Both the position numbers and the translations under genes were made by a program. A DNA stretch of 64,000 nucleotides from a virus: positions 32,001 to 96,000 of the IMG/VR virus record IMGVR_UViG_3300036715_001290. One strand, written 5' to 3'. Positions 1,402 to 59,726 of this stretch are shown piece by piece. The notes under the pieces are model-generated. The model was not told the DNA's origin. It saw only the letters and a list, made by a program, of their open reading frames with translations, and made no database searches. Position 1 is the stretch's first letter; every line of letters begins with the position of its first letter.

Positions 1402-2166
1402 ATGGATGTTAAATCCAATGCAATAAATAAAGATTTCGTTGCAAGACGAAATAAAAAAGCACCATCACCATTAGATATTAATTATAGTAATCTTAAAGAT
1501 GCTATTAATGGTAAATTATCTGAAGATATAACAGTTGGTGGTTATACGGGTATTCGCAAGCACTATAAAACTGGCGAAATGATTCAATTTAGAGATAAAG
1601 AATATGAAGAATGGTTTAATCCAAATTCAAATACAAAATATATTAATATAGCACCTGGGTATACAATAAATGACGGTGTATACACTGATAGATTTGCCGA
1701 TAATAAAATGTTCGAAACCTGTCCAGTTTGTAAAAAAACTATAAGAAAACAATTTGATTATAAAATGTTTACAAAAACAGGAATGTGTTTAGATTGTAAA
1801 GTACATGAAGAAAACCAAATAAAAGAATCAGGTGGTTTTGAAAAATATGTACAAAATAAAATATTAAATAATAAACTTTCATATATGAAAGATACAAAAG
1901 GTCAAGTAGAAACGCTTATAAGTGGATTGAATAAAAAAATGACATATGTCAATGAAGACGGTTCAATTGATACTTGGGATAATGGTTCATATGATTCACA
2001 AAAGGCATTTTTAGAGTTACAATTAGCTGATATTGAAAAACTTATAATAGGTTTGGAAAAAACATTATCAGGTGAAATAACCGAAGATGAATTAATGTTA
2101 ATATATGATGAAGTAAAAGCAAATGGTGCACCTGAAACTGCTAGCACTGAGGAAGTAAAAGAGTAA
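1402..2166 (+). CDS. Zn-finger (CxxC...CxxC) and coiled-coil protein directly upstream of TerL; function unknown (terminase small subunit candidate by position only)
   Basis: CPVC...CLDC motifs; stop overlaps the TerL start (TAATG); GAGG upstream. Confidence 0.5.
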   Translation: MDVKSNAINKDFVARRNKKAPSPLDINYSNLKDAINGKLSEDITVGGYTGIRKHYKTGEMIQFRDKEYEEWFNPNSNTKYINIAPGYTINDGVYTDRFADNKMFETCPVCKKTIRKQFDYKMFTKTGMCLDCKVHEENQIKESGGFEKYVQNKILNNKLSYMKDTKGQVETLISGLNKKMTYVNEDGSIDTWDNGSYDSQKAFLELQLADIEKLIIGLEKTLSGEITEDELMLIYDEVKANGAPETASTEEVKE

Positions 2167-3782
2167 TGGAACTCGATGACATTGTAGTTAAAAAACCTAC
2201 AATAAAAGAATTAATGGCTGAAGAATTTACACGATGTGGATTGGATTCAAAGTACTTTATTAAAAAATATTGTACAATAGTTCATCCTCAACGTGGTAAA
2301 ATTTTATTTGAAACATATCCTTATCAAGATGATTTACTTGATATATTTGAATCTAAACATAGAACGATTATATTAAAAGGTAGACAATTAGGTATATCAA
2401 CATTATCAGCAGGTTTTATTTTATGGCGTATGATTTTTAATGATGATTATAATGTTGTTATTGTTGCTACAAAACAAAAAGTAGCAAAAAATCTTGTTAA
2501 GAAGGTAAAGATTATGAATGATCTTTTACCATCTTGGATGCGAAGTGAATGTATAGAAAATAACATGTTAAGTGTTGTTTTATCAAATGGTTCGCGTATT
2601 ATTGCAGAAACAACGGCAGAAGACGTAGGTCGTTCTGAAGCTGCATCATTGGTTGTTATTGATGAATGTGCTCACATTAAACGTATGAGTGATATTTGGA
2701 CAGCATTACAACCTACACTTTCAACAGGTGGTGATTGTATTGCTTTAAGTTCACCTAATGGATATGGTAACTGGTTTCATAAAACATGGTGTGATGCTGA
2801 AGAAGGACGTAATAGTTTTCAAACTGTAGAACTTCCTTGGAGTGTTCATCCTGAACGTACTCAAAAATGGAGAGATGAACAGGAAATTGAACTTGGTCCA
2901 AGAAGAGCTGCACAAGAATGTGATGCTAAGTTCTTGTCATCAGGTAATACTGTTATTGCTCCTGATATTTTAGAATGGTATCAAAACAATACAGTAAAAC
3001 AACCTATTCGTAAAATTACACCAACTGTTAGTTATAGCTCAGATCTTAAAGATACTATTTGGATTTGGAAAGATCCTGATTTTGATGCAAAGTATATTAT
3101 AAGTGGTGACGTTGCTCGTGGTGATGGTGATGATTATAGTACATTTCATATTATAGATACAAAAACATATGAACAAGTTGCTGAATTTGAAGGTAAATTA
3201 CCACCAAATAATTTCGGTGATTTAATATTAGAATATGCTGTAAAATATAATGATGCATATGTTATTGTTGAAAATGCAAACATTGGTATGGGTACATGTC
3301 AACGTTTAATTGATAGAGGATGTAGGAATCTTCATTATACAAAAGAATCTGATAAAAGAGGATTTGTTAATGAAAAGACAAAATTTTCATCGGCTATTAA
3401 AAAGAGTGATGTACCTGGGTTTACAATGTCATTAGCTACACGCCCATTAGTTATAAGTCAAATGGAAGAAATTATAAGATTAAAGCAAATTATAATAAAT
3501 TCACAAAGAACAATAACCCAATTACGTACATTTGTATACTTAAATAATAAACCACAAGCTGCATATGGTTATAATGATGATATTGTTATGGCATTATGTA
3601 TTGCTATTTTTGGTAGGGATGTTGCATTAATTAATATATCACGAAATGATTCAATGGTTACCGCAATGTTAGGTGCTATACATGTTAGCAGGTCAGAACA
3701 AAATACACATGGTAATATAATAACCAATCCTTGGCAATATGGAACTGGTAGACAAGCAATAAATTTAACGGAGTTTTTATAA
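2166..3782 (+). CDS. terL: Terminase large subunit (T4 gp17-like)
   Basis: YPYQ adenine-binding motif, LKGRQLGIST Walker A, VVIDECAH Walker B, SSPNG coupling motif, nuclease motifs GDVARGDGDDYS and NDDIVMA. Confidence 0.95.
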   Translation: MELDDIVVKKPTIKELMAEEFTRCGLDSKYFIKKYCTIVHPQRGKILFETYPYQDDLLDIFESKHRTIILKGRQLGISTLSAGFILWRMIFNDDYNVVIVATKQKVAKNLVKKVKIMNDLLPSWMRSECIENNMLSVVLSNGSRIIAETTAEDVGRSEAASLVVIDECAHIKRMSDIWTALQPTLSTGGDCIALSSPNGYGNWFHKTWCDAEEGRNSFQTVELPWSVHPERTQKWRDEQEIELGPRRAAQECDAKFLSSGNTVIAPDILEWYQNNTVKQPIRKITPTVSYSSDLKDTIWIWKDPDFDAKYIISGDVARGDGDDYSTFHIIDTKTYEQVAEFEGKLPPNNFGDLILEYAVKYNDAYVIVENANIGMGTCQRLIDRGCRNLHYTKESDKRGFVNEKTKFSSAIKKSDVPGFTMSLATRPLVISQMEEIIRLKQIIINSQRTITQLRTFVYLNNKPQAAYGYNDDIVMALCIAIFGRDVALINISRNDSMVTAMLGAIHVSRSEQNTHGNIITNPWQYGTGRQAINLTEFL

Positions 3783-3783
3783 A

Positions 3784-4281
3784 ATGAAATTATTGGAAGT
3801 ATCATTAATACAAAAGGCAGAACAATTTGCTAGAGAAGTACATACTGGACAGTTTAGAAAATCATCGATGAAACCTTACATTGTTCATCCATTATTAGTT
3901 TATAAACTAACAAAACATTTTGGTTTTGGTAAGAATGAACAAATAATTGCATTATTACATGATACATATGAAGATGGTGCAGATCCAAAAGCAATTGCCG
4001 ATTATATTGGTAAAACATTTGGTAGTAATATATTGTCTATTGTTTTACTATTATCACATGATAAATCGGTTGAATATAATACCTATTTATTAGCATTAGC
4101 AAAAAAATCACCATTTGCATTGAATGTTAAATTATGTGATATGATTGCAAATTTATCAGATGCACCAACACAAAGTCAATATAATAAATATAAGTCAGGA
4201 TTCATGAATTTGAAATCTAACAATATTTATATACAGGACAACTTACTAAAGACATTAAACAAGATTTTCAAATTAGGATAA
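3784..4281 (+). CDS. Stand-alone RelA/SpoT-type HD hydrolase (small alarmone hydrolase / Mesh1-like)
   Basis: H.GQFRK...PYIVHP, LLHDTYED and VKLCD...NL match the RSH hydrolase motifs; no synthetase domain. Confidence 0.85.
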   Translation: MKLLEVSLIQKAEQFAREVHTGQFRKSSMKPYIVHPLLVYKLTKHFGFGKNEQIIALLHDTYEDGADPKAIADYIGKTFGSNILSIVLLLSHDKSVEYNTYLLALAKKSPFALNVKLCDMIANLSDAPTQSQYNKYKSGFMNLKSNNIYIQDNLLKTLNKIFKLG

Positions 4282-4284
4282 TAC

Positions 4285-6090: not shown

Positions 6091-6148
6091 AAAATGATTG
6101 TTTTCTTAAATCTGTAATAATTATATTAAAAAAACGTTTGGAGATGTC

Positions 6149-7045: not shown

Positions 7046-7208
7046 AAAAAATAAATCTTTAAAACGTCATGTTAAAACGTGTATAAAAGATCTACTTGAT
7101 GAAATGACTTCATCAGGAGCAGTTGGAGCATATTCTACTCCGTTTTTCATAAAACCAGATAAGACTAAAAAGAATAACATAGTACGTAGACGTATGACGG
7201 GTAAGTAA
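7035..7208 (+). CDS. Small 57-aa protein missing from the ORF track (MIPKKNKSLKRHVKTCIKDLLDEMTSSGAVGAYSTPFF...)
   Basis: Open from ATG 7035 to TAA 7208; fills the gap exactly and its stop overlaps the next ATG; contains an LLDE site. Confidence 0.7.
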   Translation: MIPKKNKSLKRHVKTCIKDLLDEMTSSGAVGAYSTPFFIKPDKTKKNNIVRRRMTGK

Positions 7209-7872: not shown

Positions 7873-7883
7873 GAAAGTATATA

Positions 7884-8222: not shown

Positions 8223-8230
8223 GGAATATA

Positions 8231-11467: not shown

Positions 11468-13138
11468 ATGAAAAAAATAAAATATCAAAACTTGTTTGAA
11501 GGCCCAAGCTACGAAGAAAAGTTAGCTGTGTCTACTAAAGGACTTGTTGCGAAATGGCAAAAAACTGGACTTTTACGTGGTCTTAAGACTCAACGTGAAG
11601 TCTCTGCTATGAGCTTAGTTCTTGAAAATCAAGCAAAACAATTGGTTAAGGAATCTTCTTTAGTCAATGGCCCTGGTACTGAAGAGTGGAGTGGTATTGC
11701 ACTTCCATTAGTAAGACGTCTTATTGCTGATATCGCAGCACAAGAGTTCGTTTCAGTACAACCTATGGCTCAACCTAGCGGTCTTGTATTCTTCTTAGAC
11801 TTCAAGTACGGTAGCGGTGCTCAATTAGGCTTTACTCAAAACGCATCAATTTATGGTGGTGATAAAAATGCAGATGGTACTACAGGTTTATTCGGTCGTA
11901 CTAACTCAGCAACTGGTGGTCTTTACGGTGCTGGTCATTTTGCATATTCAATTAACAACTTCCAATCGGCTAGCTTAACAGCAACTGTAACAACTGGTAG
12001 TTGGATTGATGTTAACTTGTCAACTGCTTTAAGCGCATCAGCTGCTGTAAGTAACATTAAGAAATTAGCTGTTACCGCAGGTCCTGAAATTGACGTTTAT
12101 GCAGCACGTGCATTTAACCTTTCATCAGCAAACGCAACTAACGCGGCATTAGTATTCTATCACGACTATACAACTGTTAGTCAAAGTGGTGCTAATTATG
12201 TTGTAACATTTGTAGCCGACGCAACAGCAGCAACTGCTTTAGCAGCAGGTACAAACGCTTTAACACATGCATCTGCTTCAGCAGCATCAGCATGGACATT
12301 GGATTACGTAAAACAAACCACAGCTGATAACCGTGGTGATTTCGAAGATATTTCAGTTTCAGGTTCTTTTGTTGCTCTTGACATCCCTGAAGTTGACATT
12401 ATGATTAAATCTGAGACTGTAGTTGCTAAGACTCGTAAGATGAAGGCAGTATGGACTCAAGAAACCGTTCAAGATCTTCAAGCTTACCAAGCTGTTGATG
12501 CAGAAATGGAATTAACAAACATTCTTAATGAACACCTTGCTCAAGAAATTGACTTGGAAATCTTAGAAATGTTAATCCAAGCTGCTCCAACAATAGACTA
12601 TTGGTCAGCAAGAATCGGTTATGAGTACAATGCAGGTACAAAAACATTACAAAATAATGGTACCAATGCAATGGCTTATACACAACAAACATGGTTCCAA
12701 ACATTAGGTACAAAGATTACCAAGATGAGTAGCCGTATACATCAAAAAACATTACGTGGTGGTGCAAACTTCCTTGTATGTTCACCTGATGTTGCAACCA
12801 TCTTAGAATCTATCCCTGGTTATGCAACCGATGCAGCTGGTGATGAAAAAGAATTTGCTATGGGTATATCTCGTTCAAGTTCATTCAAATCACGCATCAA
12901 GATTTATAAGAACCCTTATTTCACAAATAACGTAATGTTACTTGGTTATAAAGGTACCAGTTTCTTCGAAAGTGGAGCTGCTTATTTACCTTACGTGCCT
13001 TTGATGAGCACACCTGTTATCTATGATCCTGTTACATTTACTCCACGTAAAGGTATCATGACAAGATATGCAAAGAAGGTTCTTCGTCCTGAGTTCTTCG
13101 GCTTAATTGGCGTAGAAGGTATCGACGTTGTATTCTAA
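11468..13138 (+). CDS. Major capsid protein (T4 gp23-like)
   Basis: LPLVRR, VSVQPMAQPSGLVF, AKTRKMKAVWT.E..QDL.A, EID.EIL, YLPYVPL, F.PRKGIMTRY; strong AGGAG and high-expression codon usage. Confidence 0.97.
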   Translation: MKKIKYQNLFEGPSYEEKLAVSTKGLVAKWQKTGLLRGLKTQREVSAMSLVLENQAKQLVKESSLVNGPGTEEWSGIALPLVRRLIADIAAQEFVSVQPMAQPSGLVFFLDFKYGSGAQLGFTQNASIYGGDKNADGTTGLFGRTNSATGGLYGAGHFAYSINNFQSASLTATVTTGSWIDVNLSTALSASAAVSNIKKLAVTAGPEIDVYAARAFNLSSANATNAALVFYHDYTTVSQSGANYVVTFVADATAATALAAGTNALTHASASAASAWTLDYVKQTTADNRGDFEDISVSGSFVALDIPEVDIMIKSETVVAKTRKMKAVWTQETVQDLQAYQAVDAEMELTNILNEHLAQEIDLEILEMLIQAAPTIDYWSARIGYEYNAGTKTLQNNGTNAMAYTQQTWFQTLGTKITKMSSRIHQKTLRGGANFLVCSPDVATILESIPGYATDAAGDEKEFAMGISRSSSFKSRIKIYKNPYFTNNVMLLGYKGTSFFESGAAYLPYVPLMSTPVIYDPVTFTPRKGIMTRYAKKVLRPEFFGLIGVEGIDVVF

Positions 13139-13675: not shown

Positions 13676-15106
13676 ATGCCATATAGTATATACTCTAAAT
13701 ACATTGTTAACGGTGAAGGACAACCAGTAACAGGTTCTACAATTAAATTAGTCCCACAGGCTTTAACATATCCAACAGGTGCTATATCATTGGTTGATGA
13801 TCATTTGGTACACCCAGGTCACTATTATACAACCTCGGCTCCAGATGGTGAATATCAATTATGGATTAATGATGTATTATATGAAGAACATATATGGCAT
13901 GGTGAAAATAGAATAACACAAATATCAAATAAATTCAGTCCTGATTTAACATCATTTGTAGGTGGTATTAATAATATTGCTAATGGTCCATCATCATTTG
14001 CATTTGGTGGTGATGCAACTAGTGGCGGTATTAATGAAGCTAGCGGTTTATGTTCAACAACGTTTGGTGATAGTAATTTAGCAAGTGGTCAATTTTCATT
14101 TGCATTAGGAGTTAGTAATATATCTAGTGGTATTGCTAGTTTTGCATTAGGATTAGGTTCTATATCAAGTGGTAATTATTCATTTGCATTTGGCCCAGGC
14201 ACAATATCAAGCGGTTCATCGTCTATAGCAATTGGTAATTCCTCCGAGTCTCATGGTGATTTTTCTGTAGCTATAGGTCAAGGAAATTATGCAATAGGTG
14301 CATATAGTTTTTCGGCAGGTACATCTACATTTGCATCTGGAAGCGCTTCAACTGCATTTGGTAATAGTTCATATGCAACGGGTGATACTAGTTTTGTTTG
14401 TGGTGATTCAACAAATGCAAAAGGACATTGTTCATTTGCTGGAGGTAGTTCATCAAATACAAATGCTGATAATTGTTTTTCGTTTGGTGATAGTAATAAT
14501 GCAAATGGAATTAGTAGTGTAACAATGGGTACAAATAATAGCACTTATGGTATTAGTTCAGTTGCATTAAATAGTGGTAATAATGCAATAGGGGATATGT
14601 CAGTTGCTTTAGGTAACGGTACATCTGCTAATGGTGTATGTTCTATATCAAAAGGTGACAACTCAAGTACAATAATGTTTGGACAAGAAACTACATCAGA
14701 TGGTTCAAATGTAGGTCAATCAAGTACAGTCGATGTATCAGGTGAAATAGGTGGAAGTTTAATAAACAATACATATAAACTTCAATTAAATAGAACGGTT
14801 AATCAAACATTAACACCAACCGATATTCCATTACAAGGTGGAAAAACATATTTATTCGAAGCTCTTATAAGTACATTTTCAATAGACCCAGGCACTCAAT
14901 ATGCATATAAATTAACATGGGCTTGTACAAGTAGCACAATATTAGGAAGTGTAATTACTACACCTATTTATGCACCAGATAATAATCATATACCTGTTAT
15001 AAGTTTAGCTGGTAATAAACTTATTATAACATGCCCTAAAAAGACTACTGATATTGAAGGTTTGAAGTCATATGCACATTTAACTTTCACGGAATTAACA
15101 CATTAA
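13676..15106 (+). CDS. Fibre/adhesin with YadA-head-like (Hep/Hag) 14-residue repeats
   Basis: Repeated ASG..S.A.G....; first ~85 aa shared with the next gene. Confidence 0.75.
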   Translation: MPYSIYSKYIVNGEGQPVTGSTIKLVPQALTYPTGAISLVDDHLVHPGHYYTTSAPDGEYQLWINDVLYEEHIWHGENRITQISNKFSPDLTSFVGGINNIANGPSSFAFGGDATSGGINEASGLCSTTFGDSNLASGQFSFALGVSNISSGIASFALGLGSISSGNYSFAFGPGTISSGSSSIAIGNSSESHGDFSVAIGQGNYAIGAYSFSAGTSTFASGSASTAFGNSSYATGDTSFVCGDSTNAKGHCSFAGGSSSNTNADNCFSFGDSNNANGISSVTMGTNNSTYGISSVALNSGNNAIGDMSVALGNGTSANGVCSISKGDNSSTIMFGQETTSDGSNVGQSSTVDVSGEIGGSLINNTYKLQLNRTVNQTLTPTDIPLQGGKTYLFEALISTFSIDPGTQYAYKLTWACTSSTILGSVITTPIYAPDNNHIPVISLAGNKLIITCPKKTTDIEGLKSYAHLTFTELTH

Positions 15107-15154: not shown

Positions 15155-18100
15155 ATGTCTGATAGCATATTTTCAAAGTATTTTCTAAACAGTGCAGGTG
15201 AACCTGTGCCTAATTTAACAGTCAAACTAGTTCCACAAGCAAACGTAGGATTTGTAGGATCTATAACGTTAATAGAAGATCAATCGCGCCCAGGTTATTA
15301 TTACACAACATCTGCACCAACAGGTGAATATAGATTATATGTTAATAATGTACAATATGAACAACATATATGGCATGGTGATGATAAATTAACAAAAGTT
15401 GCAAGTTATTTTGATACTGATAATAATGCTATAATAATAAACAATGTTAATTTACTAAATTATAGTAGTTCAGGTTATACTAATGTTGTTAGTAAAAATG
15501 GATTTTTATATAATACATCAACCGAAAAGTATTTAGTACCTCCTACAAACATACCATTAACATATTTATCAGCTTCACAAGCAATATCAAGTGGTAGTTT
15601 GCAAACTGATTTAACATATTTTATTACTGATAGAAATGTATATTTGACCGCAAATTCAACATCATCATTTTCTGATTTTGGTTATTATTTATATCAACAT
15701 GGTCAAAAATCATGGGCTGCTCAAAAATTAACAGGTTCTAAATTTGATAATTGTACTGTTTATCAAAGTGGAAGTAATGCTAATGTAAATTCTGTTTATG
15801 TTGGTACCGCTAGCTTATTTAGTGGTAGCGTAGCATCGGTATTTTCTACACCATATTATATAAATAATAAACGATGGATAGAATATTTCCATGATGATTA
15901 TAAAATAAATTATGTTCCTGATAATAGTACTATAGCAACTATAGAAGCTATAGCTAATAATATTAATAAACATCAATCAAATTTTACTTCATATGCAGTT
16001 AATGATCATATTGTTTTACAATCATCAACTGAAGGAACATTACATAATGGTTCTTTAACACATGTCACAAAAACATCCGCATCATTATGTACAAATCCAA
16101 CATTTACATCATCGGCGACAACAATTACTCGTATGAATCATGGTACAAGTGTACCTAATTTTGGTAGATTATTTGAATGTAAATATAATTTTACATTAGA
16201 TAATTTGTATTCATTATATGATCCATTATATGATAATATGGTTGAACAAGATTTTAATTTTCAAAATACACCATCAAATATTCCTATAAGATATAAATCA
16301 TATACACATTCAGAAGCGAAATATACTTTTGAAGGTGATGTTAGAAATTATTTTAGAGTAAATGAAATAACTCGTGCGCATAACTTCAAACCTGATATAT
16401 ATAGAAAAGTTGTTATCAGCAATATTGTTTATTTTAATGGTGAAACATTAATAACAGTTAATGAAGATGCAACGCTAGCATTAGGTGGTACCGATGATGT
16501 AACTAATGGTGGTGAACTTTTAACATTAAATCCTAATGGAAATACTATATTAAATTTTAACTGGGATAATACTAATGTTACAAATAATAAAATTGTAAAC
16601 GCCGTTGTTAAAACAAATTTTATTGATAGTCAAAGTTACATTAAAAATAATAATATTTTTGGTGGAATATTTGGAAATAATATATTATTCTCAAAATCAA
16701 ACATTGAGAAATTAAATACTATTGATGCAAATATACAAAATAATATATTTCAAGTTGGTTCAGGTTTATATAATCTTACTATAAGTGGTGGAAATAAACG
16801 TTCACATAATTATGTAAATTCAATAATATCAAATAATAATTTTATTTCATATAGTAAGTTGTCAAATTTATCATTAACAAATGGTGAATGGATAATTTAT
16901 AATACCTTTTATAATACATCATATACAAATTCAAACTTAAATGGTAATACAAACATATTAAATAATGTTTTTGTATATACTAAACTTGATAAATTTGATA
17001 TGTCAGATCGTTCTACGATTGTTAATAATGATATTAATCATTGTATATTTTATAATACATCATTATCATATGATTCATTTATAAGTACCAATTTATTTAA
17101 TAAAACAACATTTCTAAATAATAAAACCTCACATTGTTTTATTATAGATAATATAATACATTATTTATTATGGAAAAATGATAATTCCGATGATATTAAA
17201 TGGAGAGATCTTCAAACATATGGTGCAGGTTTAGGTTTATATGAAGGTGGATGTGGTCAATTATTATCTACATTTCAAAAGAAAAGTCAAGGATTAACTA
17301 TAGGAACATCTATACAATTTAATAGTAGGTTGAATCCTATAGTTGGTAGCATATCATTTGATTATAAAATGAATGATGTATACATGTATGATACATCAAT
17401 ATATGCATGTGGTAATACAGGTTCCATTATATTAACAGAAAATACAGGTACATCTTGGACTACACAATCTGGAATTTCAACGGCTAATTTTAATAGTTTA
17501 GCAGTATTAGGTGGTGATAGTAAAATTTATGTTGTTGGTGATAGTAACACAATAATGACATCAACCGATCATACTAATTGGAATAATGTTGGTATACCAG
17601 ATGTTAACAGTTACCCAAGTAAATTAAATAAAATAAAATTTATAAATAAAGGTACTGGTTTTATAGTAGGTGATGGTGTTATATATAAAACAATAAATAC
17701 AGGTTCTACTTGGATTGCAAAATCATGGCCATATCAAATAGTTAACTATAACCCAAGACCACCATTTAAAGAATTAAAAAGTGTATATTTCTTAAATGAT
17801 AATGTTGGTTGGGCATGTGGTGTTGAAGGTATAATAGTTAAAACAATTGATGGTGGTGAAACATGGACGTCTCAAACATCAGGTACTACAAAAACAATAA
17901 ATGATATAGTTTTTTATGATAGTTCACATGGTGTTGCCATTTGTAATGATGGTATGGTATTAACGACATCATATGGTGGAAATAATTGGTCTTCACAAAC
18001 ACTAACACCAGTTAGTAATTTAACAAGTCTTAGTCGCAATGTTGATGGATTTTATATCATTACTGGTGATAATGGAAATGTATATGTTTCTGAAGATGGA

Positions 18101-22141: not shown

Positions 22142-22594
22142 ATGTCACTATTCATACCACCAAGAGATTTTGAATTTTTCAAAGGTATTAATAAAGAATT
22201 GATAGGTAAAATAATTGATACTTATTTTACACTATATCAAGTAAATGTTGCTGTATCTGAAAATAATTTATATGGTGAAGATAAAAATAAAACATATTTC
22301 CCAGGTATAAAAATAAATGGTTTTATTAATAAACATGGTACTGATGCTGAAGAAACTGAATTGGGTACAAATGTAAAACAATTATTAGATTTAGGTGTAG
22401 CAATTGCTGATTTATTAGAACTTAAAGTATTACCTGAAGTTGGTGATATTGTAGAATGGAATAATAACTATTATGAAATTCATAATACAAATGAAAATCA
22501 CTTTATTGCAAATAGACCTGAATATAGTTACACTATGATGTTAAATTGTCACGTAACTAATGTTGGTTTTATCAATATAGGAACTCGTGAATAA
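22142..22594 (+). CDS. Neck/head-closure protein (gp14-like)
   Basis: NLYGED and PEVGDIV.W...YEI motifs; synteny. Confidence 0.7.
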   Translation: MSLFIPPRDFEFFKGINKELIGKIIDTYFTLYQVNVAVSENNLYGEDKNKTYFPGIKINGFINKHGTDAEETELGTNVKQLLDLGVAIADLLELKVLPEVGDIVEWNNNYYEIHNTNENHFIANRPEYSYTMMLNCHVTNVGFINIGTRE

Positions 22595-32708: not shown

Positions 32709-32999
32709 ATGAAAACATACAATAATATTAACATAATAAAGGATTCAAATAATAATTCATATTATGATGAACCTTTAATTCCAACAATACCAACAAATAG
32801 TGATGATATATTTTATAAATCTATCCCAGGTGATAGATTAGATATTTTATCAAAAAAATTTTATAATGATATGACATTATATATGATTATAGGTAGAGCT
32901 AATAATATTGTTGGAACTATATTTGTTGAAGTAGGAACTATATTAAGAATACCATCATTAAATTCAGTCAATTTATATTTACAAAATTTTAAGAAATAA
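32709..32999 (+). CDS. LysM-like baseplate wedge protein (gp53 / P2 gpX-like)
   Basis: GDRLD.LS.KFY.D..LY.II..AN......G..LRIP. Confidence 0.8.
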   Translation: MKTYNNINIIKDSNNNSYYDEPLIPTIPTNSDDIFYKSIPGDRLDILSKKFYNDMTLYMIIGRANNIVGTIFVEVGTILRIPSLNSVNLYLQNFKK

Positions 33000-35882: not shown

Positions 35883-36196
35883 AAGATCTAAATATAATTA
35901 CACTAACAAATGTACATCCTAATCCAACATCAGTTGATTATGATAATGGTTTTATGTATAGATATTTTTCAAAGTTAAATACTAAGACAAATAATTTAAT
36001 ATATGAGATAGATGAAAAGCAATATAAATCAGTATCAAATATTCCATATTATTATACTATAAAAGTAGTATGGTTAATAGTTGGATTAGTTGAATATGTT
36101 GCAACTAAGAATAATGATACTTTATTATATTATGATAATGAAATGCCCGGGTTGTATAAAAAATATGTAAAAACAGTTGTTGAATTTTTGAAATAA
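35879..36196 (+). CDS. Hypothetical baseplate-region protein
   Basis: P.PT..DY..G...RYF...EI; coupled to the hub gene. Confidence 0.55.
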   Translation: MKDLNIITLTNVHPNPTSVDYDNGFMYRYFSKLNTKTNNLIYEIDEKQYKSVSNIPYYYTIKVVWLIVGLVEYVATKNNDTLLYYDNEMPGLYKKYVKTVVEFLK

Positions 36197-40551: not shown

Positions 40552-41334
40552 ATGGCTACATCGTTAGACAAAATACGCGCAATGATTAAGGGAAACAAAA
40601 ATACCAACAAATGGTCACCACTCCCTGGCAATCACACCATCCGAATCGTTCCAAGCAAATTGGACCCTGAAAATCCATTTACACTTTTAAAGTTGTATTA
40701 TGGTATTAACGGTAAAACACTTCTTTCACCAACAACAGTAGGCGATCCTGATCCAATTTACGAATTGGCAAGAAAACTTTATGATGCAAAGACTGAAGAA
40801 AGTGAAGCAGCCGCAAAGAAAATTACACCTAAGCCAAGATTCTTTCTTCCTATTATCGTAAGAGAAGAGGAAAATAAAGGAGTTATGCTTTGGGGTGTTA
40901 GTAAGACAATGAAAGATGATCTTGCTAAAATTATTGAACAAAATTTAATTGAAGATGATACCGATATTGTTGACCCAGTATCTGGTATTGATTTAATTGT
41001 TGAGGTACTTTCACCTAAAGATGCAGGTAACAAGTTTGGTAAGACAACTGTTCGTGCAAAAAAGAAAAGTACTGCGTTATCAACTGATAAAGAGTTGGTA
41101 GAGAAATGGTTAACAGACCAACCAGATCCTAATTCATTATATGAAATGCCTTCATATGATGACCTTAAAAAGGAATTGGAAAAATATCTTAATTCAGGTT
41201 CAGAAGTTGATACCGTAGGTGCAAAGGTTGAAGTTGATGATGAAGATGAAGTTAGTGAAACTAAAGTTCAAACCTTAAAGAAAACTGGTGATGCTAACGC
41301 AAAAATCGATGAACTTTTCGGTAAGGAAAACTAA
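40552..41334 (+). CDS. Single-stranded DNA-binding protein (gp32-like)
   Basis: IRIVP, G.PDPI.E, D..DP..G.D, acidic tail ending IDELF; first gene of the replication block. Confidence 0.8.
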   Translation: MATSLDKIRAMIKGNKNTNKWSPLPGNHTIRIVPSKLDPENPFTLLKLYYGINGKTLLSPTTVGDPDPIYELARKLYDAKTEESEAAAKKITPKPRFFLPIIVREEENKGVMLWGVSKTMKDDLAKIIEQNLIEDDTDIVDPVSGIDLIVEVLSPKDAGNKFGKTTVRAKKKSTALSTDKELVEKWLTDQPDPNSLYEMPSYDDLKKELEKYLNSGSEVDTVGAKVEVDDEDEVSETKVQTLKKTGDANAKIDELFGKEN

Positions 41335-42610: not shown

Positions 42611-43654
42611 ATGAACGAAAACATGAAAAAAATGCTCGAGTTAGTTGAAAAAGAGCATATTGAAAGATTAAGCTATAATCAAAATAGTAAAATATTAATT
42701 TTAGACGGATTAAACAACTATATTAGAAATTGGGTTACTTCGGTTGAAATGAATGCTGATGGAAAACATGTTGGTGGAATAACAGGATTTCTTAAATCAT
42801 TAGGTTTAGCCATTAGAATGTTAGAACCTACCCGTGTTATTATTATATTTGATGGTAATGGTGGTTCAAAAAGAAGAAGAAAAATATATCCAGAGTATAA
42901 GGCAACACGTGGGCATGGTGTTAAATTAAATAGAAAATATAATTGGTCATCTGATTCTGAAGAAGATGAACAAAAGATAGCACAATTAAAAAGATTAGTT
43001 GCATATCTAAAATTGTTACCAATCACTATTATGATATATGATAATATTGAAGCCGATGATGCAATCGGTGAAGTTGTAAAATTATGTGAAGATAAAAGTA
43101 AAATTTATATAATGTCAACTGATAAAGATTTTTATCAATTAATAACCGATAATGTTAACATATGGCATCCTATACATAAAAAGATGTTAGATAAAAAATG
43201 GATAATGGAAAAATATGGTGTAGATACGAAAAATGTATTAATACAAAAAGCACTTATTGGTGATACTGGAGATAATATCCCAGGCATAGATGGGTTTGGT
43301 ATTAAAACAATAAATAAACATTTTCCAATATTAGCTGAAGATAGAAAAATATCAATAGAAGAATTTAAAGAATATGTTAAAGAATTAAGTAATACAAAAA
43401 AACCACCAAAGGTTATATTAACACTATTAGAACAATGGGATAAGTTCTTATTAAATATTAGACTTATGACATTATCTGAAGCTAACGTCTCATATGGAAC
43501 AAAAGTATCAATTGAGGAGACTCTAAATACTAAGACAAAACGTTGTAGTGAATCAAAGCTTAATGATCTTTTTTTACTTGACAAGATAAATTCAATGAAT
43601 GGATATGATTATTTCAAAAATAATTTTGTATTTATAAATACATTTTGTAATTAA
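42611..43654 (+). CDS. 5'-3' exonuclease / flap endonuclease (T4 RNase H-like)
   Basis: LILDGLN, FDG, YPEYKATR, EADDAI, STDKDFYQL, GDTGDNIPGIDGFG.KT; start probably ATG 42611. Confidence 0.92.
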   Translation: MNENMKKMLELVEKEHIERLSYNQNSKILILDGLNNYIRNWVTSVEMNADGKHVGGITGFLKSLGLAIRMLEPTRVIIIFDGNGGSKRRRKIYPEYKATRGHGVKLNRKYNWSSDSEEDEQKIAQLKRLVAYLKLLPITIMIYDNIEADDAIGEVVKLCEDKSKIYIMSTDKDFYQLITDNVNIWHPIHKKMLDKKWIMEKYGVDTKNVLIQKALIGDTGDNIPGIDGFGIKTINKHFPILAEDRKISIEEFKEYVKELSNTKKPPKVILTLLEQWDKFLLNIRLMTLSEANVSYGTKVSIEETLNTKTKRCSESKLNDLFLLDKINSMNGYDYFKNNFVFINTFCN

Positions 43655-45038: not shown

Positions 45039-45803
45039 ATGAAAAAGAAAAGGATAGTTTTTTGGAGCGGTGGATTGGATTCAACATATCTAATTCAAAA
45101 ATCTTTAGAAGAAGGATATCTTGTAACCGCATGTTATATTAATATTGAAAATAATACTAATAAAGTTGTACGAGAAAAAGAAGCAATTGAAAGATTATTA
45201 CCTCATTTTAATAAAAGTAAAAACTTTAATTATATTAATGAATTATTAAATGTTAATGTACATCCACAAGGTATAGTTTCATTTTATCAATTTCCAATAT
45301 TTATGCTAGGCATGATGTATTGTATGAATGAATATGATGAAATAGCATTGGCATATGTAATGAATGATGATTTTGTTTCATATCAAAATGAGGCAATAAA
45401 ATTGTTTAATGCTGCTAGGTTATTTTCAATAAGTGATCATAAATGTAAATTAGTATTTCCATTAATTAAAAAACATAAATTCAATATAATAGAATCATTA
45501 GATAATGATTTAATAAATTTAGTTACATTTTGTGAAAGTCAATATGCTAAGGATTTTTGTGGTACATGTACACCATGTAAAAAAATGAAAAGTGTTGATG
45601 AAAGATTATATAATACTTTACATGAAAAATATCATGATAACTTAGTTGTTAAAAATTTTACTGATAATGGTCATGGTGATGGTACTGAATGGGTTAATGA
45701 ACCAACGGAATCTGATGTTGAATTACTTAAAACTGTAATACATAAGAAAAATCACAGAAAAATCAAATCAAATAAAATGCCAACATCAAGTAAAAAAAGA
45801 TAG
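45039..45803 (+). CDS. QueC-like PP-loop ATPase (7-cyano-7-deazaguanine synthase family)
   Basis: WSGGLDST PP-loop and C-terminal Zn site C-x8-CGTCTPC. Confidence 0.75.
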   Translation: MKKKRIVFWSGGLDSTYLIQKSLEEGYLVTACYINIENNTNKVVREKEAIERLLPHFNKSKNFNYINELLNVNVHPQGIVSFYQFPIFMLGMMYCMNEYDEIALAYVMNDDFVSYQNEAIKLFNAARLFSISDHKCKLVFPLIKKHKFNIIESLDNDLINLVTFCESQYAKDFCGTCTPCKKMKSVDERLYNTLHEKYHDNLVVKNFTDNGHGDGTEWVNEPTESDVELLKTVIHKKNHRKIKSNKMPTSSKKR

Positions 45804-45876: not shown

Positions 45877-48000
45877 ATGACAGTTCAACCTATTGACTAT
45901 TTACAGGAAATTTCAAATTTTATATTTACGAGTAAATATGCTCGTTATGTTGATGAAAAAAAACAAAGAGAAACTTGGGAACAAGCAATAGATCGTAGCA
46001 TGAATATGCATCTAAAAAAATATTCATTTCTACCAAAGGAAGATTTGGATGAAATAGTATGGGCATTTTTACAAATGAAAATGTATAAAGTATGTTCATC
46101 TATGAGATCATTACAATTTGGTGGTGCTGCAATTGAAGCACATAATGCTAGAATATATAATTGTGCAGTACGCCATATAGATTCATTAAGATCATTTTCA
46201 GAAGTATTTTATTTATTACTTTGTGGTTGTGGTGTTGGTTTAGGTTTATCTGATTTATTTCTAAAGAGGTTACCTAATCTTGCAGGATCTGAAGATAAGA
46301 CAGGAACGGTATCGGTATATACTATTGATGATAGTATTGAAGGATGGGCAAATTCTGTTGAAGCATTATTAATGAGTTACTTTAAAAATACACCATTCAC
46401 TGGTAAAAAAATAGTTTTCGATTATTCAAAAATTCGTAAAAAAGGTGCAAAGTTAAAAACTGGTGGTGGTAAAGCACCTGGGTATGCAGGTCTTAAGAAA
46501 GCACATATTAAAATTAAAAAGATTTTAGATTTTATTATTGAAGAACAAGGTCAATATAGAATTAATAGTGTTAACTGTTATGATATATTAATGCATTGTG
46601 CAGATGCTGTTTTAAGTGGTGGTATTCGTAGAGCTGCAACATCAGTTATGTTTGCATTTGATGATTCAGGAATGATGAATGCAAAAATAAATGTTAAGGT
46701 ACATAAATATGGTTTATTTGAATTAGATACTAAGACAGGTAAATATGAAGGAAATGTTCATGTTAAAGATGAAACATATTTCAAATCACAAAGATATGAA
46801 GTACATTTAACCGAATGGGAATTGGGTAATCTTAAGGAAAATAATGAAGTAGGTTGGCATCATATTTATCCACAACGTGCACGTAGTAATAACAGTGTAT
46901 TATTTTTACGAGATAAAGTAACAAAGGAACAATTTACAGCAGCGGTACTTAATACAAAACAATGGGGTGAACCTGGGTTTGTGTTTGGTGATTTCTTAGA
47001 TATACTTTATAATCCTTGTTATGAAGTTGGTTTTAGACCTGTATTATCAAGTGGTGTCTGCGGTGTACAGTTTTGCAATTTAACTACTAAAAATGGTGCA
47101 TTAATTAAAACAGTTGAAGATTATTACACTGCATCAAAAGCAAGTGCTATCATTGGTACATTACAAGCAGGATATACTAATTTTCCATTTTTAGGACCTG
47201 CATCAAAAGAATTAACTGAAGATGAAGCATTATTAGGTTGTTCAATGACAGGTGTTATGGATAATCCTGATATTTTACTTAATCCTGAATATCAAAGAAA
47301 TGCCGCAAAAATAATAAAAGATACTAATAAATTATGGGCTAAGAAAATTGGTATTAATCAAGCTGCACGTGTTACTGTTGAAAAACCTGAAGGTACTTCA
47401 TCAATAGTTGTTAAATCAGCTAGTGGTATGGGTCCACATGAATCTCATAAATATATTCGTAGAGTTCAAATGAATAAAATGGATAATGTTTATAATCATT
47501 TCAAAAAATCAAACCCACATATGACAGAAGAATCCGTTTGGTCGGCTAATAAAACTGATGATGTTATATCGTTTCCTATTGTAGTACCTAAAACATCAAT
47601 GGTTAAAGCCGATTTAACAGCATTAAAACATTTAGAATATATTAAATCAACACAAATAAATTACATACTTGAAGGTGCAACAAAAAGAAATGTTAAAAAA
47701 ATATCAAATAATGTTAGTTGTACTGTAATTGTCGCTGATGATGAATGGAATGATGTTATTGATTATTTATATGATAACCGTAAGTATTTTTCAGCAGTAT
47801 CATTATTACCTAAAATGGGAAGTAAAATGTATCGTCAAGCACCTATGGAATCAATTGAAACATTAGAAGATGAAAAGATGTGGGATAAAATAGTTAAAAA
47901 TTATAAACATGTTGATTATTCAACAATGATTGAAAATTCAGATGAAACCAATATGATGGCTGAGGCAAGTTGTTATGGTGGTGCATGTAATATTGTTTAA
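45877..48000 (+). CDS. nrdJ: Class II (B12-dependent) ribonucleotide reductase
   Basis: RETWEQ, YNC, GCGVG, GGIRRAA, RARSNNS, GEPG, NPCYE, FCNLT, KPEGT and C-terminal CYGGAC. Confidence 0.9.
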   Translation: MTVQPIDYLQEISNFIFTSKYARYVDEKKQRETWEQAIDRSMNMHLKKYSFLPKEDLDEIVWAFLQMKMYKVCSSMRSLQFGGAAIEAHNARIYNCAVRHIDSLRSFSEVFYLLLCGCGVGLGLSDLFLKRLPNLAGSEDKTGTVSVYTIDDSIEGWANSVEALLMSYFKNTPFTGKKIVFDYSKIRKKGAKLKTGGGKAPGYAGLKKAHIKIKKILDFIIEEQGQYRINSVNCYDILMHCADAVLSGGIRRAATSVMFAFDDSGMMNAKINVKVHKYGLFELDTKTGKYEGNVHVKDETYFKSQRYEVHLTEWELGNLKENNEVGWHHIYPQRARSNNSVLFLRDKVTKEQFTAAVLNTKQWGEPGFVFGDFLDILYNPCYEVGFRPVLSSGVCGVQFCNLTTKNGALIKTVEDYYTASKASAIIGTLQAGYTNFPFLGPASKELTEDEALLGCSMTGVMDNPDILLNPEYQRNAAKIIKDTNKLWAKKIGINQAARVTVEKPEGTSSIVVKSASGMGPHESHKYIRRVQMNKMDNVYNHFKKSNPHMTEESVWSANKTDDVISFPIVVPKTSMVKADLTALKHLEYIKSTQINYILEGATKRNVKKISNNVSCTVIVADDEWNDVIDYLYDNRKYFSAVSLLPKMGSKMYRQAPMESIETLEDEKMWDKIVKNYKHVDYSTMIENSDETNMMAEASCYGGACNIV

Positions 48001-48019: not shown

Positions 48020-48541
48020 ATGAAATTAATATGTTTATTAAATGAAAAAGAATCATATTGGTATTTAGGTTCAAATCCAACAGCCGATGCGGCCGTATTT
48101 AAGAAAGTTAATAATAATATATTATTATTATTGATTAAACGTAAAGGTGAAATTGAACATGGAAAGTGGGCACTCCCAGGTGGTTTTGTAGATACGCTTT
48201 CTAAAAAAGGTGAACCGTGGAAACAAGACAAAGAAACACCAAAACAAGCAATTATACGAGAATTAATAGAAGAAACAGGATTAAATATCTCAAATATTGC
48301 CAACATGTTGAAAAAAATAGGTACATATAAAGGACATAAAAGAGATCCAAGGGATAATGATAAAGGTTGGTCATTATCTAATGCATATGCAATATTATTA
48401 CCTAATGATTTTAATACATCAAATATAAATGCAAAAGATGATGCTAGTGAATTAAAGTGGTTTGATATTAAAAGTTTACCAAATTTGGCATTTGATCATA
48501 GTATTATTATAAAACATGCAATATCAAGAATATTTAGATGA
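48020..48541 (+). CDS. Nudix hydrolase, ADP-ribose pyrophosphatase (NrtR/NadM-Nudix)-like
   Basis: WALPGGFVD...ET...A..REL.EETGL Nudix box, RDPR, DDA...W....LP.LAFDH..II. Confidence 0.88.
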   Translation: MKLICLLNEKESYWYLGSNPTADAAVFKKVNNNILLLLIKRKGEIEHGKWALPGGFVDTLSKKGEPWKQDKETPKQAIIRELIEETGLNISNIANMLKKIGTYKGHKRDPRDNDKGWSLSNAYAILLPNDFNTSNINAKDDASELKWFDIKSLPNLAFDHSIIIKHAISRIFR

Positions 48542-49134: not shown

Positions 49135-49539
49135 ATGAAACTAAATAGCGTAATAAAAGAATATGGTATGAACAAAGATGTTCTTAAACCTGGGAAATCT
49201 TATAAAATAAAAACCGTAAAAAATGATTATGATTTATTTGTATTAGATGTAACGGTTGCTGGTCCTTGTTTGTACAAAGCAAATGAAGTTGCAGTTGTTG
49301 CTGATTTTTATGAAGTAACCGTAAGTGTATTTGATAAAGGTGGTCAAGAACAATTTTCACAAGAGACTGAGTTTGTAACACGAACAAAGTTAAAAGAAAC
49401 AAATGCAGGTGAAGTTGCAAAATTAATTGCAAATATAGCAGGTAATACTTTAAGTAAATTGGAAATGAATATTTCACGTACAGTTGATAATTTATTAACT
49501 ACAGATTTACCTAATAAAGCAAAGGCCGTTAAATTATGA
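49135..49539 (+). CDS. Hypothetical protein, putative internal head protein
   Basis: MKLNSVIKE N-terminus. Confidence 0.55.
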   Translation: MKLNSVIKEYGMNKDVLKPGKSYKIKTVKNDYDLFVLDVTVAGPCLYKANEVAVVADFYEVTVSVFDKGGQEQFSQETEFVTRTKLKETNAGEVAKLIANIAGNTLSKLEMNISRTVDNLLTTDLPNKAKAVKL

Positions 49540-55412: not shown

Positions 55413-55431
55413 CATAATAAAAAGGTTATAT

Positions 55432-56217: not shown

Positions 56218-56220
56218 TAA

Positions 56221-57153: not shown

Positions 57154-57156
57154 GTC

Positions 57157-57432
57157 ATGGGCCAACCAACTAAAATAAACCAACCTAAAATAGATCTTAA
57201 TTCATTAGAAACAATGGAATGTGAAGCATGTGGAGGAAGACTTTGGTCTGAATTATCATATATGAAAATTGTACCTGCCTTATTATCTAATACTGGTAAA
57301 CCTGGGTTAGTTCCAATCCCAGTTGTTGCATGTGCAAATTGTCTTCATGTTAATGAAACATTTAATCCAATTAAAGTAATTACCGTTGAACATGAAATGC
57401 CTGCACCACAATCAAGCCTATTAGTAAAATAA
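57157..57432 (+). CDS. Small Zn-ribbon protein
   Basis: CEACG...CANC. Confidence 0.65.
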   Translation: MGQPTKINQPKIDLNSLETMECEACGGRLWSELSYMKIVPALLSNTGKPGLVPIPVVACANCLHVNETFNPIKVITVEHEMPAPQSSLLVK

Positions 57433-57433
57433 T

Positions 57434-57865
57434 ATGACAAATAAATCGGTTGATTTGTTTTGGTTCTTATCACAAATTCTTAAGGATAAGAACCAAAATA
57501 TTTTTGATGAATTATCGGATGTTGATAAAAATAAATGGTCTACATTTATGATAGATAAATATCTATCAATGGACCCAATGTATACTATATTAATTTCGGA
57601 TTTTTCAAGATACTCATTGTCATTACCACGTGAAATTGTATATAAGTTTTATTCAAATTTAATACCAAAAAGAACAAATACCTTTATTAGATATATAAAA
57701 GGCTCAAAGAAAACACAAACACATTCTCCTGAATTTATTGAGAAATTACAAGCTATGTATGAGTGTTCAAAAAAAGATGCTTTACAATATGCAAATCTTT
57801 TTAGTAAAGATGAAGAAGCCGCATATATGTTAAAATTTGGTATTATTAAAAAGAAAGAAAAATAA
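57434..57865 (+). CDS. Clamp loader small subunit (gp62-like)
   Basis: FMI.KYLSM, Y.F....IPK.....YIK, Y.CS...A.QY. Confidence 0.7.
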   Translation: MTNKSVDLFWFLSQILKDKNQNIFDELSDVDKNKWSTFMIDKYLSMDPMYTILISDFSRYSLSLPREIVYKFYSNLIPKRTNTFIRYIKGSKKTQTHSPEFIEKLQAMYECSKKDALQYANLFSKDEEAAYMLKFGIIKKKEK

Positions 57866-58092
57866 TGTTTGGTTCTTTTGCTAAAACCTTTGATGCATAT
57901 GTTGAATATTGTAAAGCCAATAATATACCATTACCTAAGGTTAAATTAGTTAAACAAGATGATGTAACACCACAAAAGTTATCACCACCTGTTTGTTTAG
58001 TATATTATTTAGATTTTAAGTATAAAGGTAAATCAATGACAATAAATAATGAACAAAAATTTGATGATGAAAATAGTATAAAACAAATGTAA
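57865..58092 (+). CDS. Hypothetical protein
   Basis: TAATG-coupled ORF. Confidence 0.45.
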   Translation: MFGSFAKTFDAYVEYCKANNIPLPKVKLVKQDDVTPQKLSPPVCLVYYLDFKYKGKSMTINNEQKFDDENSIKQM

Positions 58093-58128
58093 GCACTATT
58101 TATACATAACAACATAAAGGAATTATAA

Positions 58129-59289
58129 ATGAAAACACAATTATGTATCGGCCCTATGAGTGACGAACTAATATTAGTTGCTGATAAACTTAGCAAAAAA
58201 TATGAAATTGATATTCCACTTATAGCAAGTAGAAATCAAGTTGATTATGATAATGGGTATGTATGTACTACATTAGAATTAAATGATAAATTAAACAAAT
58301 TAGATAATTCACATTTAAAGATGTGTAGAGATCATGCAGGTCCATTCTTAAAACAATCTGATAAAGGATTGAATATAATGGATGCAATGTCAGAAGTAAT
58401 GAAAACTATATTCAATGATATCATTAATGGTTTTACAACTATTCATATAGATCCTTCAGTAGGAACAAATATGTATGGAGAAGCAACATATGACCAATAT
58501 AATTTATTTAATGATGATAGTATTAATTATGGTTTAGAACCTAAACAAGCTGTTAATGTTATAATATCCAGAAGTAGATATCTTTTTGAATATGCTCAGA
58601 GTATTGCAAAATCATATAAAGTCGTATTAAATTATGAATTTGGTACTGAAGAACAAAATGGTAATTTACAAGATATTGAATTAATGAATTATTTTTTAAG
58701 TAAAATTAAAAATATATTTCGTGAAAATTTATCAGATTGGCCTGTTAATGATATTCATATAGTTTGTCAAACCGGAACATTAGTAAGTGGTGTTAGTAAT
58801 ATTGGTAAATATCCAACATTTACACAACATGAAAAGAGCGAATTACAGGATGTAATAAATTTAATTCATGCATACGGTTTTAAAGTAAAGGAACATAACT
58901 TAGATTATTTACCTGAGTATCTTTTACATGAACGTCATGAATTATGTATTGATGCAAGTAATGTTGCTCCAGAATTTGGTGTAACACAAACAAGAACATT
59001 ATTAAATTTATTTGGTAAGAATACTCAATTTATGGATTGTGTAACGGAATTAGTAAATAAAACAAACATGTGGAAAAAATGGTTACCTGCTGATGCAAAT
59101 GATATACAAAAGATTGAGGCTGCTTTACATTATGATTTTACAAATCCACAATTAAAATCATTATTAACAAAATTAAGTAAATCAACACCAAATTATTCTG
59201 AATATATTCAACATGATTTAGAAGTTGTTATGAACAAATATTTACATGCATTTAATCTAATTGAAAGCGATTTATGGAAAATAAAGTAA
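58129..59289 (+). CDS. GatZ/KbaZ-like TIM-barrel sugar-phosphate epimerase/aldolase
   Basis: ASRNQVD, RDHAGP, IHIDPS, YEFGTEE, V.QTGT, KEHNLDY, NVAPEFG. Confidence 0.75.
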   Translation: MKTQLCIGPMSDELILVADKLSKKYEIDIPLIASRNQVDYDNGYVCTTLELNDKLNKLDNSHLKMCRDHAGPFLKQSDKGLNIMDAMSEVMKTIFNDIINGFTTIHIDPSVGTNMYGEATYDQYNLFNDDSINYGLEPKQAVNVIISRSRYLFEYAQSIAKSYKVVLNYEFGTEEQNGNLQDIELMNYFLSKIKNIFRENLSDWPVNDIHIVCQTGTLVSGVSNIGKYPTFTQHEKSELQDVINLIHAYGFKVKEHNLDYLPEYLLHERHELCIDASNVAPEFGVTQTRTLLNLFGKNTQFMDCVTELVNKTNMWKKWLPADANDIQKIEAALHYDFTNPQLKSLLTKLSKSTPNYSEYIQHDLEVVMNKYLHAFNLIESDLWKIK

Positions 59290-59726
59290 TTGATAAACCT
59301 TGGGGTAGTGAAGAACTCTTATCATTAAATGATAAGTATTGTATGAAATTATTAAAGATGAATCCTGATGAAAGATGTTCATTACAATATCATCAACATA
59401 AACATGAAACTGTATATTGTATTAGTGGTATATTAATTGTATCACATGTACCTAACTTTGATGCAAATGATCTTAACAATACCATTACTATGTGGAATGA
59501 TGTTTTAAGTGGTAAGTTAAATAAAATTGTTGAATTATACCCAGGTGATTATATTGTTATTCCAGTTGGTATGATTCATCAAATGATAGTACCTGCTGAC
59601 CAACAACAAGCAACACAATATCTTGAAGCATCTACACCTGAGCTTGATGATGTAATTCGTTTGAAAGATGCTTATGGTAGAATTACTGATGATTTATTTA
59701 TTCCTTATTCAAATGAAAGAATTTAA
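59274..59726 (+). CDS. Cupin, mannose-6-phosphate isomerase type II-like
   Basis: KPWGSE, SLQYHQHKHET, PGD...IP.G.IH, EASTPELDDVIR..D.YGR. Confidence 0.85.
   Translation: MENKVIDKPWGSEELLSLNDKYCMKLLKMNPDERCSLQYHQHKHETVYCISGILIVSHVPNFDANDLNNTITMWNDVLSGKLNKIVELYPGDYIVIPVGMIHQMIVPADQQQATQYLEASTPELDDVIRLKDAYGRITDDLFIPYSNERI

Follow-up and report, generated by a model that had tools for sequence, protein, structure and literature searches.

Why would a virus use rare codons to set one particular base beside a short word that its own proteins oblige it to keep? The question arises in a 64,000-nucleotide stretch (bases 32001-96000, hereafter the window) of the 140,489-bp IMG/VR virus record IMGVR_UViG_3300036715_001290, in which a first-pass annotation had listed 28 Pro-Gly dicodons, each writing the CCNGG that it necessarily creates with a C on its 5' side or a G on its 3' side. 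The record, with a G+C content of 28% and about 90% of its genes on one strand, presents PHROG matches to large terminase, portal, tail sheath, ribonucleotide reductase and family-B DNA polymerase, and is an uncultured T4-like myovirus with a CheckV completeness figure of 70%. The nearest named phage by DNA polymerase is Microcystis phage Mel-JY01 (39% identity); megablast and tblastn searches of window genes against a phage collection returned no close relatives, and the relatives of its terminase in IMG/VR reach no more than 48% identity and do not follow the CCNGG rule. The host is probably AT-rich.

To obtain expected word counts, we performed 300 synonymous-codon shuffles, which keep the proteins and the codon usage, in each of two modes: within each gene, or from a genome-wide codon pool. 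Throughout, D denotes any base but C and H any base but G, so that D..H describes an unflanked site and C..H, D..G and C..G describe flanked ones, and pairs such as 7/182 are observed over expected counts. The window contains 29 CCNGG hits at 28 sites, as CCCGGG counts twice (15 CCCAGG, nine CCTGGG, three CCCTGG and one CCCGGG). Every one of these 28 sites has a 5' C or a 3' G, and verification of their frames against the open reading frames shows that all 28 are in-frame Pro-Gly, which bears out both the annotated sites and the remark that CCNGG occurs in no other frame of the window.

The pattern extends to all 54 CCNGG hits of the whole record, which divide into 30 C..H, 23 D..G, one C..G and no D..H. 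Against these zero copies of DCCNGGH, 43.0 are expected from the per-gene shuffles (standard deviation [sd] 3.2, minimum 34 of 300) and 45.2 from the genome-wide pool, while the 54 flanked copies compare with expectations of 15.8 and 11.4, respectively. In the window alone, unflanked sites number 0 against 25.6 expected and flanked ones 29 against 5.4. The comparison of flanking bases with codon shuffles that had been proposed as a check thus returned no unflanked site anywhere in the record, and "avoidance of DCCNGGH", offered in the annotation as an alternative, is exact as a description. The emptied flank classes include A..A (17.4 expected), A..T (13.7), A..C (4.6), T..A (4.4) and G..A (2.3), the G..C class being without power at an expectation of 0.27. 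Since only 3.25 unflanked sites with a central C or G are expected, CCWGG and CCNGG are indistinguishable as the avoided word. Taken together, CCNGG hits are about as numerous as expected (54 vs 57-59), since 44 of them are dictated by in-frame Pro-Gly and are thus irremovable; CCNNGG itself is frequent (92), as had been stated.

The manner in which these 44 Pro-Gly dipeptides are encoded shows how the rule is satisfied. In 24 of them the preceding codon ends in C, and in the other 20 glycine is written GGG; none combines both solutions and none lacks both, so that each site bears one costly fix, as would be expected if selection demanded a minimum of one flank. C-ending codons make up 5.7% of all codons, yet they account for 24 of the 44 codons that precede Pro-Gly; GGG makes up 2.5% of glycine codons, yet it is used in 20 of 44 Pro-Gly. 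Likewise CTC, which represents 1.5% of leucine codons, is used in all six Leu-Pro-Gly of the genome, including the five in the window for which this had been noted. Because CCNGG is unavoidable in Pro-Gly, each of these dipeptides has therefore been shifted to an exempt context through a rare synonymous codon. The dipeptide is also depleted (44 vs 72.5 in residue shuffles, sd 8.1).

Within the flanked sites, CCCAGG/CCTGGG is favored over CCCTGG/CCAGGG by 39:8 genome-wide, with an in-frame split of 19:5 vs 1:17 (Fisher P 1.6e-6). This preference was weighed as a sign of an asymmetric enzyme; it is a secondary signal, accounted for only in part by a general depletion of AGGG/CCCT, which outside CCWGG occurs 110 times in the record against 156 expected. 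Words bearing CAG/CTG are broadly scarce in the record as well (CAGA 558 vs 828, ACAGA 103 vs 231 and ACAG 486 vs 679).

A k-mer scan against the same synonymous shuffles revealed further purged words, each of which was then split by flank, and two of these obey the exemption seen at CCNGG. Over the whole record TTTAAA occurs 69 times against 254 expected, the loss falling almost entirely on unflanked copies (7/182) and sparing flanked ones (62/71; C..H 19/23, D..G 36/45, C..G 7/3.7), and ATCGAT shows the same division (unflanked 1/12.7, flanked 8/10.3). Within the window, a 5' C or a 3' G accompanies each of the 24 TTTAAA and six ATCGAT, where 86 and 5 unflanked copies, respectively, are expected. 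The effect is confined to the adjacent position: at -1 of TTTAAA, C is found at its expected frequency (69/75) and the remaining bases are strongly reduced (A 21/171, G 10/46, T 38/213), whereas at -2 C is not enriched, and any base may precede the protective C. The resulting gradient runs from 0.85 of expectation beside a C, through 0.13 where the flank is only a G, to 0.01 beside A or T. A flanking G, which places a C on the opposite strand of the same base pair, therefore relieves the loss slightly, and the asymmetry between an exempt 5' C and a purged 5' G is common to CCNGG, TTTAAA and ATCGAT.

The two strand classes are equivalent, with 30 C..H and 23 D..G at CCNGG and both classes at expectation for TTTAAA. 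In a genome with about 90% of its genes on one strand, this symmetry indicates that the cause sits on double-stranded DNA. General codon-junction dinucleotide biases are small (0.83-1.28 fold), and hence the flank rule is not a codon-pair artefact. Strong selection on double-stranded DNA thus removes CCNGG/CCWGG, TTTAAA and ATCGAT unless a C lies at -1 on either strand, and it leaves C-flanked sites at their expected frequency.

Two further words are lost in another manner. GAATTC is absent from the whole record at any flank (0 vs 28 expected; 0 vs 13 in the window), and the asymmetric GATCAA/TTGATC is reduced about nine-fold (8 vs 75 expected). These losses fit additional restriction systems that a flanking C does not block. 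The words without rescue start with G, so that their flanking C would lie in a CpG. The total of CpG in the record is unchanged; its copies are concentrated in CCG/CGG (823 vs 564 expected, z +18) at the expense of DCGH (A/T-flank 713/876, G-flank 275/372), so that the dinucleotide CG seems to be subject to the C-flank rule too. The CpG shift and the unrescued words starting with G together hint that a C before G is perhaps handled differently. Among overrepresented words, the palindrome GTATAC (73 vs 33), often written as AGTATACT (17 vs 3.2), and AGATATC (42 vs 18) may have a role in regulation or protein binding.

What could make a flanking cytosine protective is suggested by a complete-looking set of cytosine-modification genes that starts at the window end (Table 1). 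The predicted deoxycytidylate (dCMP) hydroxymethylase matches the T4 enzyme in PDB 1b49 with an E-value of 4e-53 and is 41% identical to T4 gp42. Its match to the RB69 homolog reaches only E 2.5e-5; the product of the latter is 5-hydroxy-dCMP (PMC13326640). By sequence, the 437-residue glycosyltransferase resembles T4 beta-glucosyltransferase (BGT) only weakly (phmmer E 1e-4), and comparison of its profile with PDB sequences did not strengthen the link to BGT, yielding a single weak fucosyltransferase match. Its AlphaFold model is of moderate quality (predicted local distance difference test score 71, predicted template-modelling score 0.76), and a fold search with this model placed T4 BGT at ranks 1-5 (E 5e-8). 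Between these two genes lies that of a C5-methyltransferase-like protein. Its homologs form a clade with invariant PLIGG, C-A-G-L-S, ENAP, PQxRxR and MGMPHDFE motifs (PCAGLS in 10 of 11 aligned homologs), in which PLIGG replaces the usual FxGxG S-adenosylmethionine-binding motif (L001:1363-2562 and L022-L038). In most carrier contigs these genes adjoin a homologous glycosyltransferase, and those contigs also encode gp42; the pairing may be the sign of a particular modification chemistry of unusual bulk.

Table 1. Genes with a putative role in base modification, and CCNGG sites of the window. Positions are those of the window; L001 positions are given for features that run or lie past its end. 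Gene functions are predictions.
Feature	Position	Strand	Remark
QueC-like PP-loop protein	45039..45803	+	PHROG 1550, E 1e-26; Pfam QueC match weak, partial
Three putative sugar-nucleotide genes (GatZ/KbaZ-like; cupin/isomerase; 600-residue protein with nucleotidyltransferase signature)	58129..61470	+	weak Pfam matches
dUTPase-family protein, 288 residues	61460..62326	+	candidate dCTP/dUTP-depleting enzyme
Deoxynucleoside monophosphate (dNMP)/thymidylate-kinase-like protein	62428..63027	+	putative
HAD-type phosphatase-like protein	62993..63568	+	weak match
GT-B glycosyltransferase, 437 residues, start	63652..64000	+	continues beyond window end (L001:50-1363)
C5-methyltransferase-like protein, 399 residues	L001:1363-2562		outside window, about 1 kb past its end; between glycosyltransferase and gp42 homolog
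gp42-type dCMP hydroxymethylase, 249 residues	L001:2771-3520		outside window; TS family
dCMP deaminase	L001:3513-3914		outside window
CCTGGG	1654..1659	+	Pro(CCT)-Gly(GGG); 3' G
CCTGGG	3414..3419	+	Pro-Gly(GGG); 3' G
CCCTGG	11671..11676	+	preceding codon C-ending; 5' C
CCCTGG	12814..12819	+	preceding codon C-ending; 5' C
CCCAGG	13813..13818	+	preceding codon C-ending; 5' C
CCCAGG	14194..14199	+	
CCCAGG	14887..14892	+	
CCCAGG	15289..15294	+	
CCCAGG	22300..22305	+	
CCCAGG	25818..25823	+	
CCCAGG	25896..25901	+	after Leu CTC
CCCAGG	26136..26141	+	after Leu CTC
CCCAGG	29115..29120	+	
CCCAGG	29256..29261	+	
CCCAGG	30684..30689	+	after Leu CTC
CCTGGG	30829..30834	+	
CCCAGG	32825..32830	+	
CCTGGG	33369..33374	+	
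CCTGGG	33828..33833	+	
CCCGGG	36146..36151	+	Pro(CCC)-Gly(GGG); two overlapping CCNGG, each flanking the other
CCCTGG	40623..40628	+	after Leu CTC
CCCAGG	43279..43284	+	
CCTGGG	46477..46482	+	
CCTGGG	46972..46977	+	
CCCAGG	48175..48180	+	after Leu CTC
CCTGGG	49189..49194	+	
CCTGGG	57301..57306	+	
CCCAGG	59540..59545	+	

On balance, we lean towards a reading in which restriction avoidance is filtered by a steric shield of glycosylated 5-hydroxymethylcytosine at -1. According to this reading, the selective agents would be host endonucleases of DraI-like, BstNI/EcoRII-like and ClaI-like specificity, as the avoided words suggest, and the phage cytosines would be 5-hydroxymethylcytosines carrying a sugar, produced by the gp42-type hydroxymethylase, the BGT-like glycosyltransferase and the sugar-nucleotide genes of the phage. 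A bulky modified C directly 5' of a site would fill the major groove that the enzyme needs, one blocked half-site being sufficient, and the enzymes that still exert selection would have to tolerate modified C within their own sites, a tolerance that TaqI has and that BstNI has in part. For CCNGG, a possible variant is that adjacent hydroxymethylcytosines are not both glycosylated, so that a CCC run would shift which C bears the sugar. A rule by which local context decides which C is modified was ruled out, as identical neighbors can surround a protective C and the C that opens an unflanked site.

The link to the flanking cytosine itself is drawn from the purged words. That TTTAAA and ATCGAT obey the exemption of CCNGG implies that the protective element is the flanking cytosine, and not a CCNNGG or GGG word, and because the rule covers TTTAAA, a site without any C, the shield must be located on the flanking base. 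Published digests provide precedents. Full glucosylation of T4 DNA does not prevent cleavage by DraI (TTTAAA) or TaqI, BstNI (CCWGG) cuts hydroxymethylated T4gt DNA partially, and EcoRI, ClaI and ScrFI are blocked (Flodman et al., PMC7653180). Digestion of T4 DNA by AseI, SspI and SwaI, with sites devoid of C, is incomplete, "suggesting an indirect inhibitory effect of 5gmC" (PMC7653180), and in phiW-14 flanking hypermodified T has been suggested to affect cleavage (PMC6449724). It is thus established that some enzymes cut hypermodified DNA and that a modified base outside the site can inhibit them; a limited literature search turned up no previous description of such a signature, resolved by position across a genome. 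A further formulation, which we advance tentatively and with somewhat less than even confidence, is that hypermodified C casts a one-base 3' "shadow" that blocks several unrelated enzymes, with sites purged only outside this shadow and the unavoidable Pro-Gly recoded into it.

The general proposal of the first-pass annotation, selection against CCNGG with escape through a protected flank, agrees with the strand symmetry, the rare synonymous codons and the deficit of Pro-Gly described above, but neither of the two mechanisms suggested for it does. If a C5-methyltransferase of phage or host methylated CCNNGG, or a similar word, and thereby blocked a CCNGG enzyme, every retained CCNGG site should be a CCNNGG, as is indeed the case, and the suggested search for C-methyltransferases did find the methyltransferase-like gene, which keeps the PC, ENxP, QxRxR and C-terminal motifs. 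Such methylation leaves the identical exemption at TTTAAA and ATCGAT unexplained, neither word being CCNNGG; moreover, the predicted protein has PLIGG in place of FxGxG as motif I, its clade adjoins the BGT-like glycosyltransferase in gp42-bearing contigs, where C5 would already be occupied in 5-hydroxymethylcytosine, and contigs with its homologs have plenty of DCCNGGH. We regard this mechanism as quite improbable. The flank rule could equally be written as a G directly 3' of the site, and a 7-deazaguanine derivative at this G, the partner of the flanking C, might then be the shield. The second mechanism of the annotation, modification of G in GGG, pointed to a QueC-like gene, which is present in the window as a weak match and stands alone: TGT/DpdA (PF01702), for which all control genomes were matched, QueD/PTPS (PF01242) and FolE/GTP cyclohydrolase I (PF01227) were not found in the 140 kb, an absence that is no proof in a record about 70% complete. 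A complete-looking cytosine pathway is present instead, and a modified guanine appears highly improbable. A search for TET/JBP gave no match in the record and none in the control genomes, and is uninformative.

Flanks are known to affect the cleavage rate of Type II enzymes, and the host nucleases might intrinsically read DCCNGGH, DTTTAAAH and DATCGATH, or cut poorly beside C:G, in which case no modification would be required. The purge matches a palindromic 7- or 8-mer exactly, and some C-flank bias is seen in two gp42-negative contigs (G005 and G006). Even so, three unrelated enzymes would have to share an absolute not-C/not-G rule, with 5' C exempt and 5' G purged in all three motifs, which is possible but uneconomical; one protective principle is more economical, and no enzyme with D...H flank specificity is known to us, although no search of REBASE was made. 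We consider such intrinsic specificity unlikely. As for causes other than restriction, Pro-Gly is a translation-sensitive pair and modified bases can give systematic base-calling errors, so that a codon-pair or translation effect, a sequencing artefact, or a Dcm/Vsr-like mutational or repair bias could be envisaged. The rule is nevertheless strand-symmetric where transcription proceeds almost wholly from one strand, and at TTTAAA it holds in two reading frames; the changes fall at flanking synonymous positions with all reading frames intact, and the junction dinucleotide biases are small. CTNGG/CCNAG is enriched (253 vs 200), the opposite of a Vsr signature, the total of CCNGG is at expectation, and the loss of GAATTC represents classical avoidance in the same genome. 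Causes of this kind are scarcely plausible.

Several observations weigh against the steric-shield reading. The modification is predicted from genes only, and the host enzymes are deduced from the avoided words. CCNGG and ATCGAT hold cytosines of their own, presumably modified, and their unflanked copies are purged all the same, which means that the nucleases must tolerate or need an internal modified C; BstNI leaves fully glucosylated T4 DNA uncut, and ClaI and ScrFI leave even hydroxymethylated DNA uncut (PMC7653180). Conversely, DraI digests T4 DNA "completely" in vitro (PMC7653180), and glucose alone may therefore not shield. A C flank also provides no rescue for GAATTC (0/7.8) or GATCAA (1/16.7). 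The remaining points in this direction come from other genomes: a G flank too partly rescues TTTAAA in three gp42-bearing genomes (G001-G003), some bias towards C flanks is present in the gp42-negative G005/G006 lineage (at CCGG, TATATA and GGNCC), and a pooled rescue index of about 40 in the present genome compares with 2-4 in other gp42-bearing contigs and 0.7-2.4 in gp42-negative controls. As a discriminator between genomes with and without gp42, this index gave no clean separation.

These comparisons were drawn from 19 further genomes and contigs, to which identical shuffles were applied; gp42 loci were retrieved by an alignment-based search, a single-protein search having retrieved none. 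A partial version of the rule is found in an unrelated contig (G014, the contig behind L118) of 39.6% G+C that carries gp42, the glycosyltransferase and the methyltransferase-like gene, with CCNGG at 24/21.5 beside C, 1/16.8 beside G and 7/19.6 beside A or T. Among other gp42-bearing genomes, C-flanked copies are favored at TCGA in G004 (11/12.8, other classes 3/14.6 and 5/41.7), at GATC in G009 (0.77 of expectation, other classes 0.19 and 0.32), at ACGT in G007 (1.33, other classes 0.24 and 0.54) and at TTTAAA in G001-G003 (0.76-0.88, A/T-flank 0.06-0.08). In T4, a complete T4-like contig and RB69, the C-flank effect is only about two-fold, at GATC. In the gp42-negative Mel-JY01 there is practically no exemption: of eight purged words, seven are all but missing at any flank, and the last, GGNCC, is reduced only in part, in every flank class. 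The evidence that the flank rule is general across gp42-bearing genomes is suggestive, and the present genome is by far the cleanest case. In the gp42-negative relatives G005/G006 (the contigs behind L015 and L021), GATC is absent against about 330 expected and GGNCC is almost gone, the surviving copies being C-flanked (5/11.9 against 0/42); GGNCC being unavoidable in Gly-Pro, this dipeptide must be strongly depleted there.

The pattern shares with the short-palindrome avoidance of phages the scarcity of words against a codon-preserving null, its strand symmetry and its synonymous changes, and differs from it in that the flanking base decides: a site is fully exempt if C occupies -1 on either strand, and the unavoidable Pro-Gly has been moved to the exempt context genome-wide. 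As in T-even cytosine hypermodification, the predicted genes comprise a gp42 homolog, a GT-B protein whose best fold match is T4 BGT, a putative dNMP kinase and a dCMP deaminase; unlike T-even phages, this virus has its own sugar-nucleotide genes, which do not look like glucose genes, and a C5-methyltransferase-like partner gene. The effect of glucosylated hydroxymethylcytosine on AT-only enzymes in T4 (PMC7653180) likewise involves a modified C outside the site that impairs cleavage, but was observed only as incomplete digestion on gels, with no rule for position, whereas the rule presented here is read from composition, pertains to position -1 and is apparently absolute. Overlapping methylation, such as that by dcm or at CpG, resembles it in that the context of the protective mark exceeds the recognition sequence; in contrast, no single word fits CCCNGG, CTTTAAA and CATCGAT, and the surroundings of the protective C are free in other respects. 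The finding is thus a variation on known restriction avoidance joined to base hypermodification, the mechanism of which we infer.

Avoidance and hypermodification are usually seen as alternatives, and here they are apparently combined at single-base resolution: modification would shield the neighbor of the cytosine, and purging would clear only what the shield misses, at a cost in rare codons and fewer Pro-Gly. If this is true, the flanks of surviving sites would provide a readout, from sequence alone, of the modified base and the reach of its protection, and would predict which host enzymes still threaten hypermodified phages. Furthermore, site counts that ignore the flanks would misjudge both avoidance and vulnerability, as for instance in the choice of enzymes for modified phage DNA.

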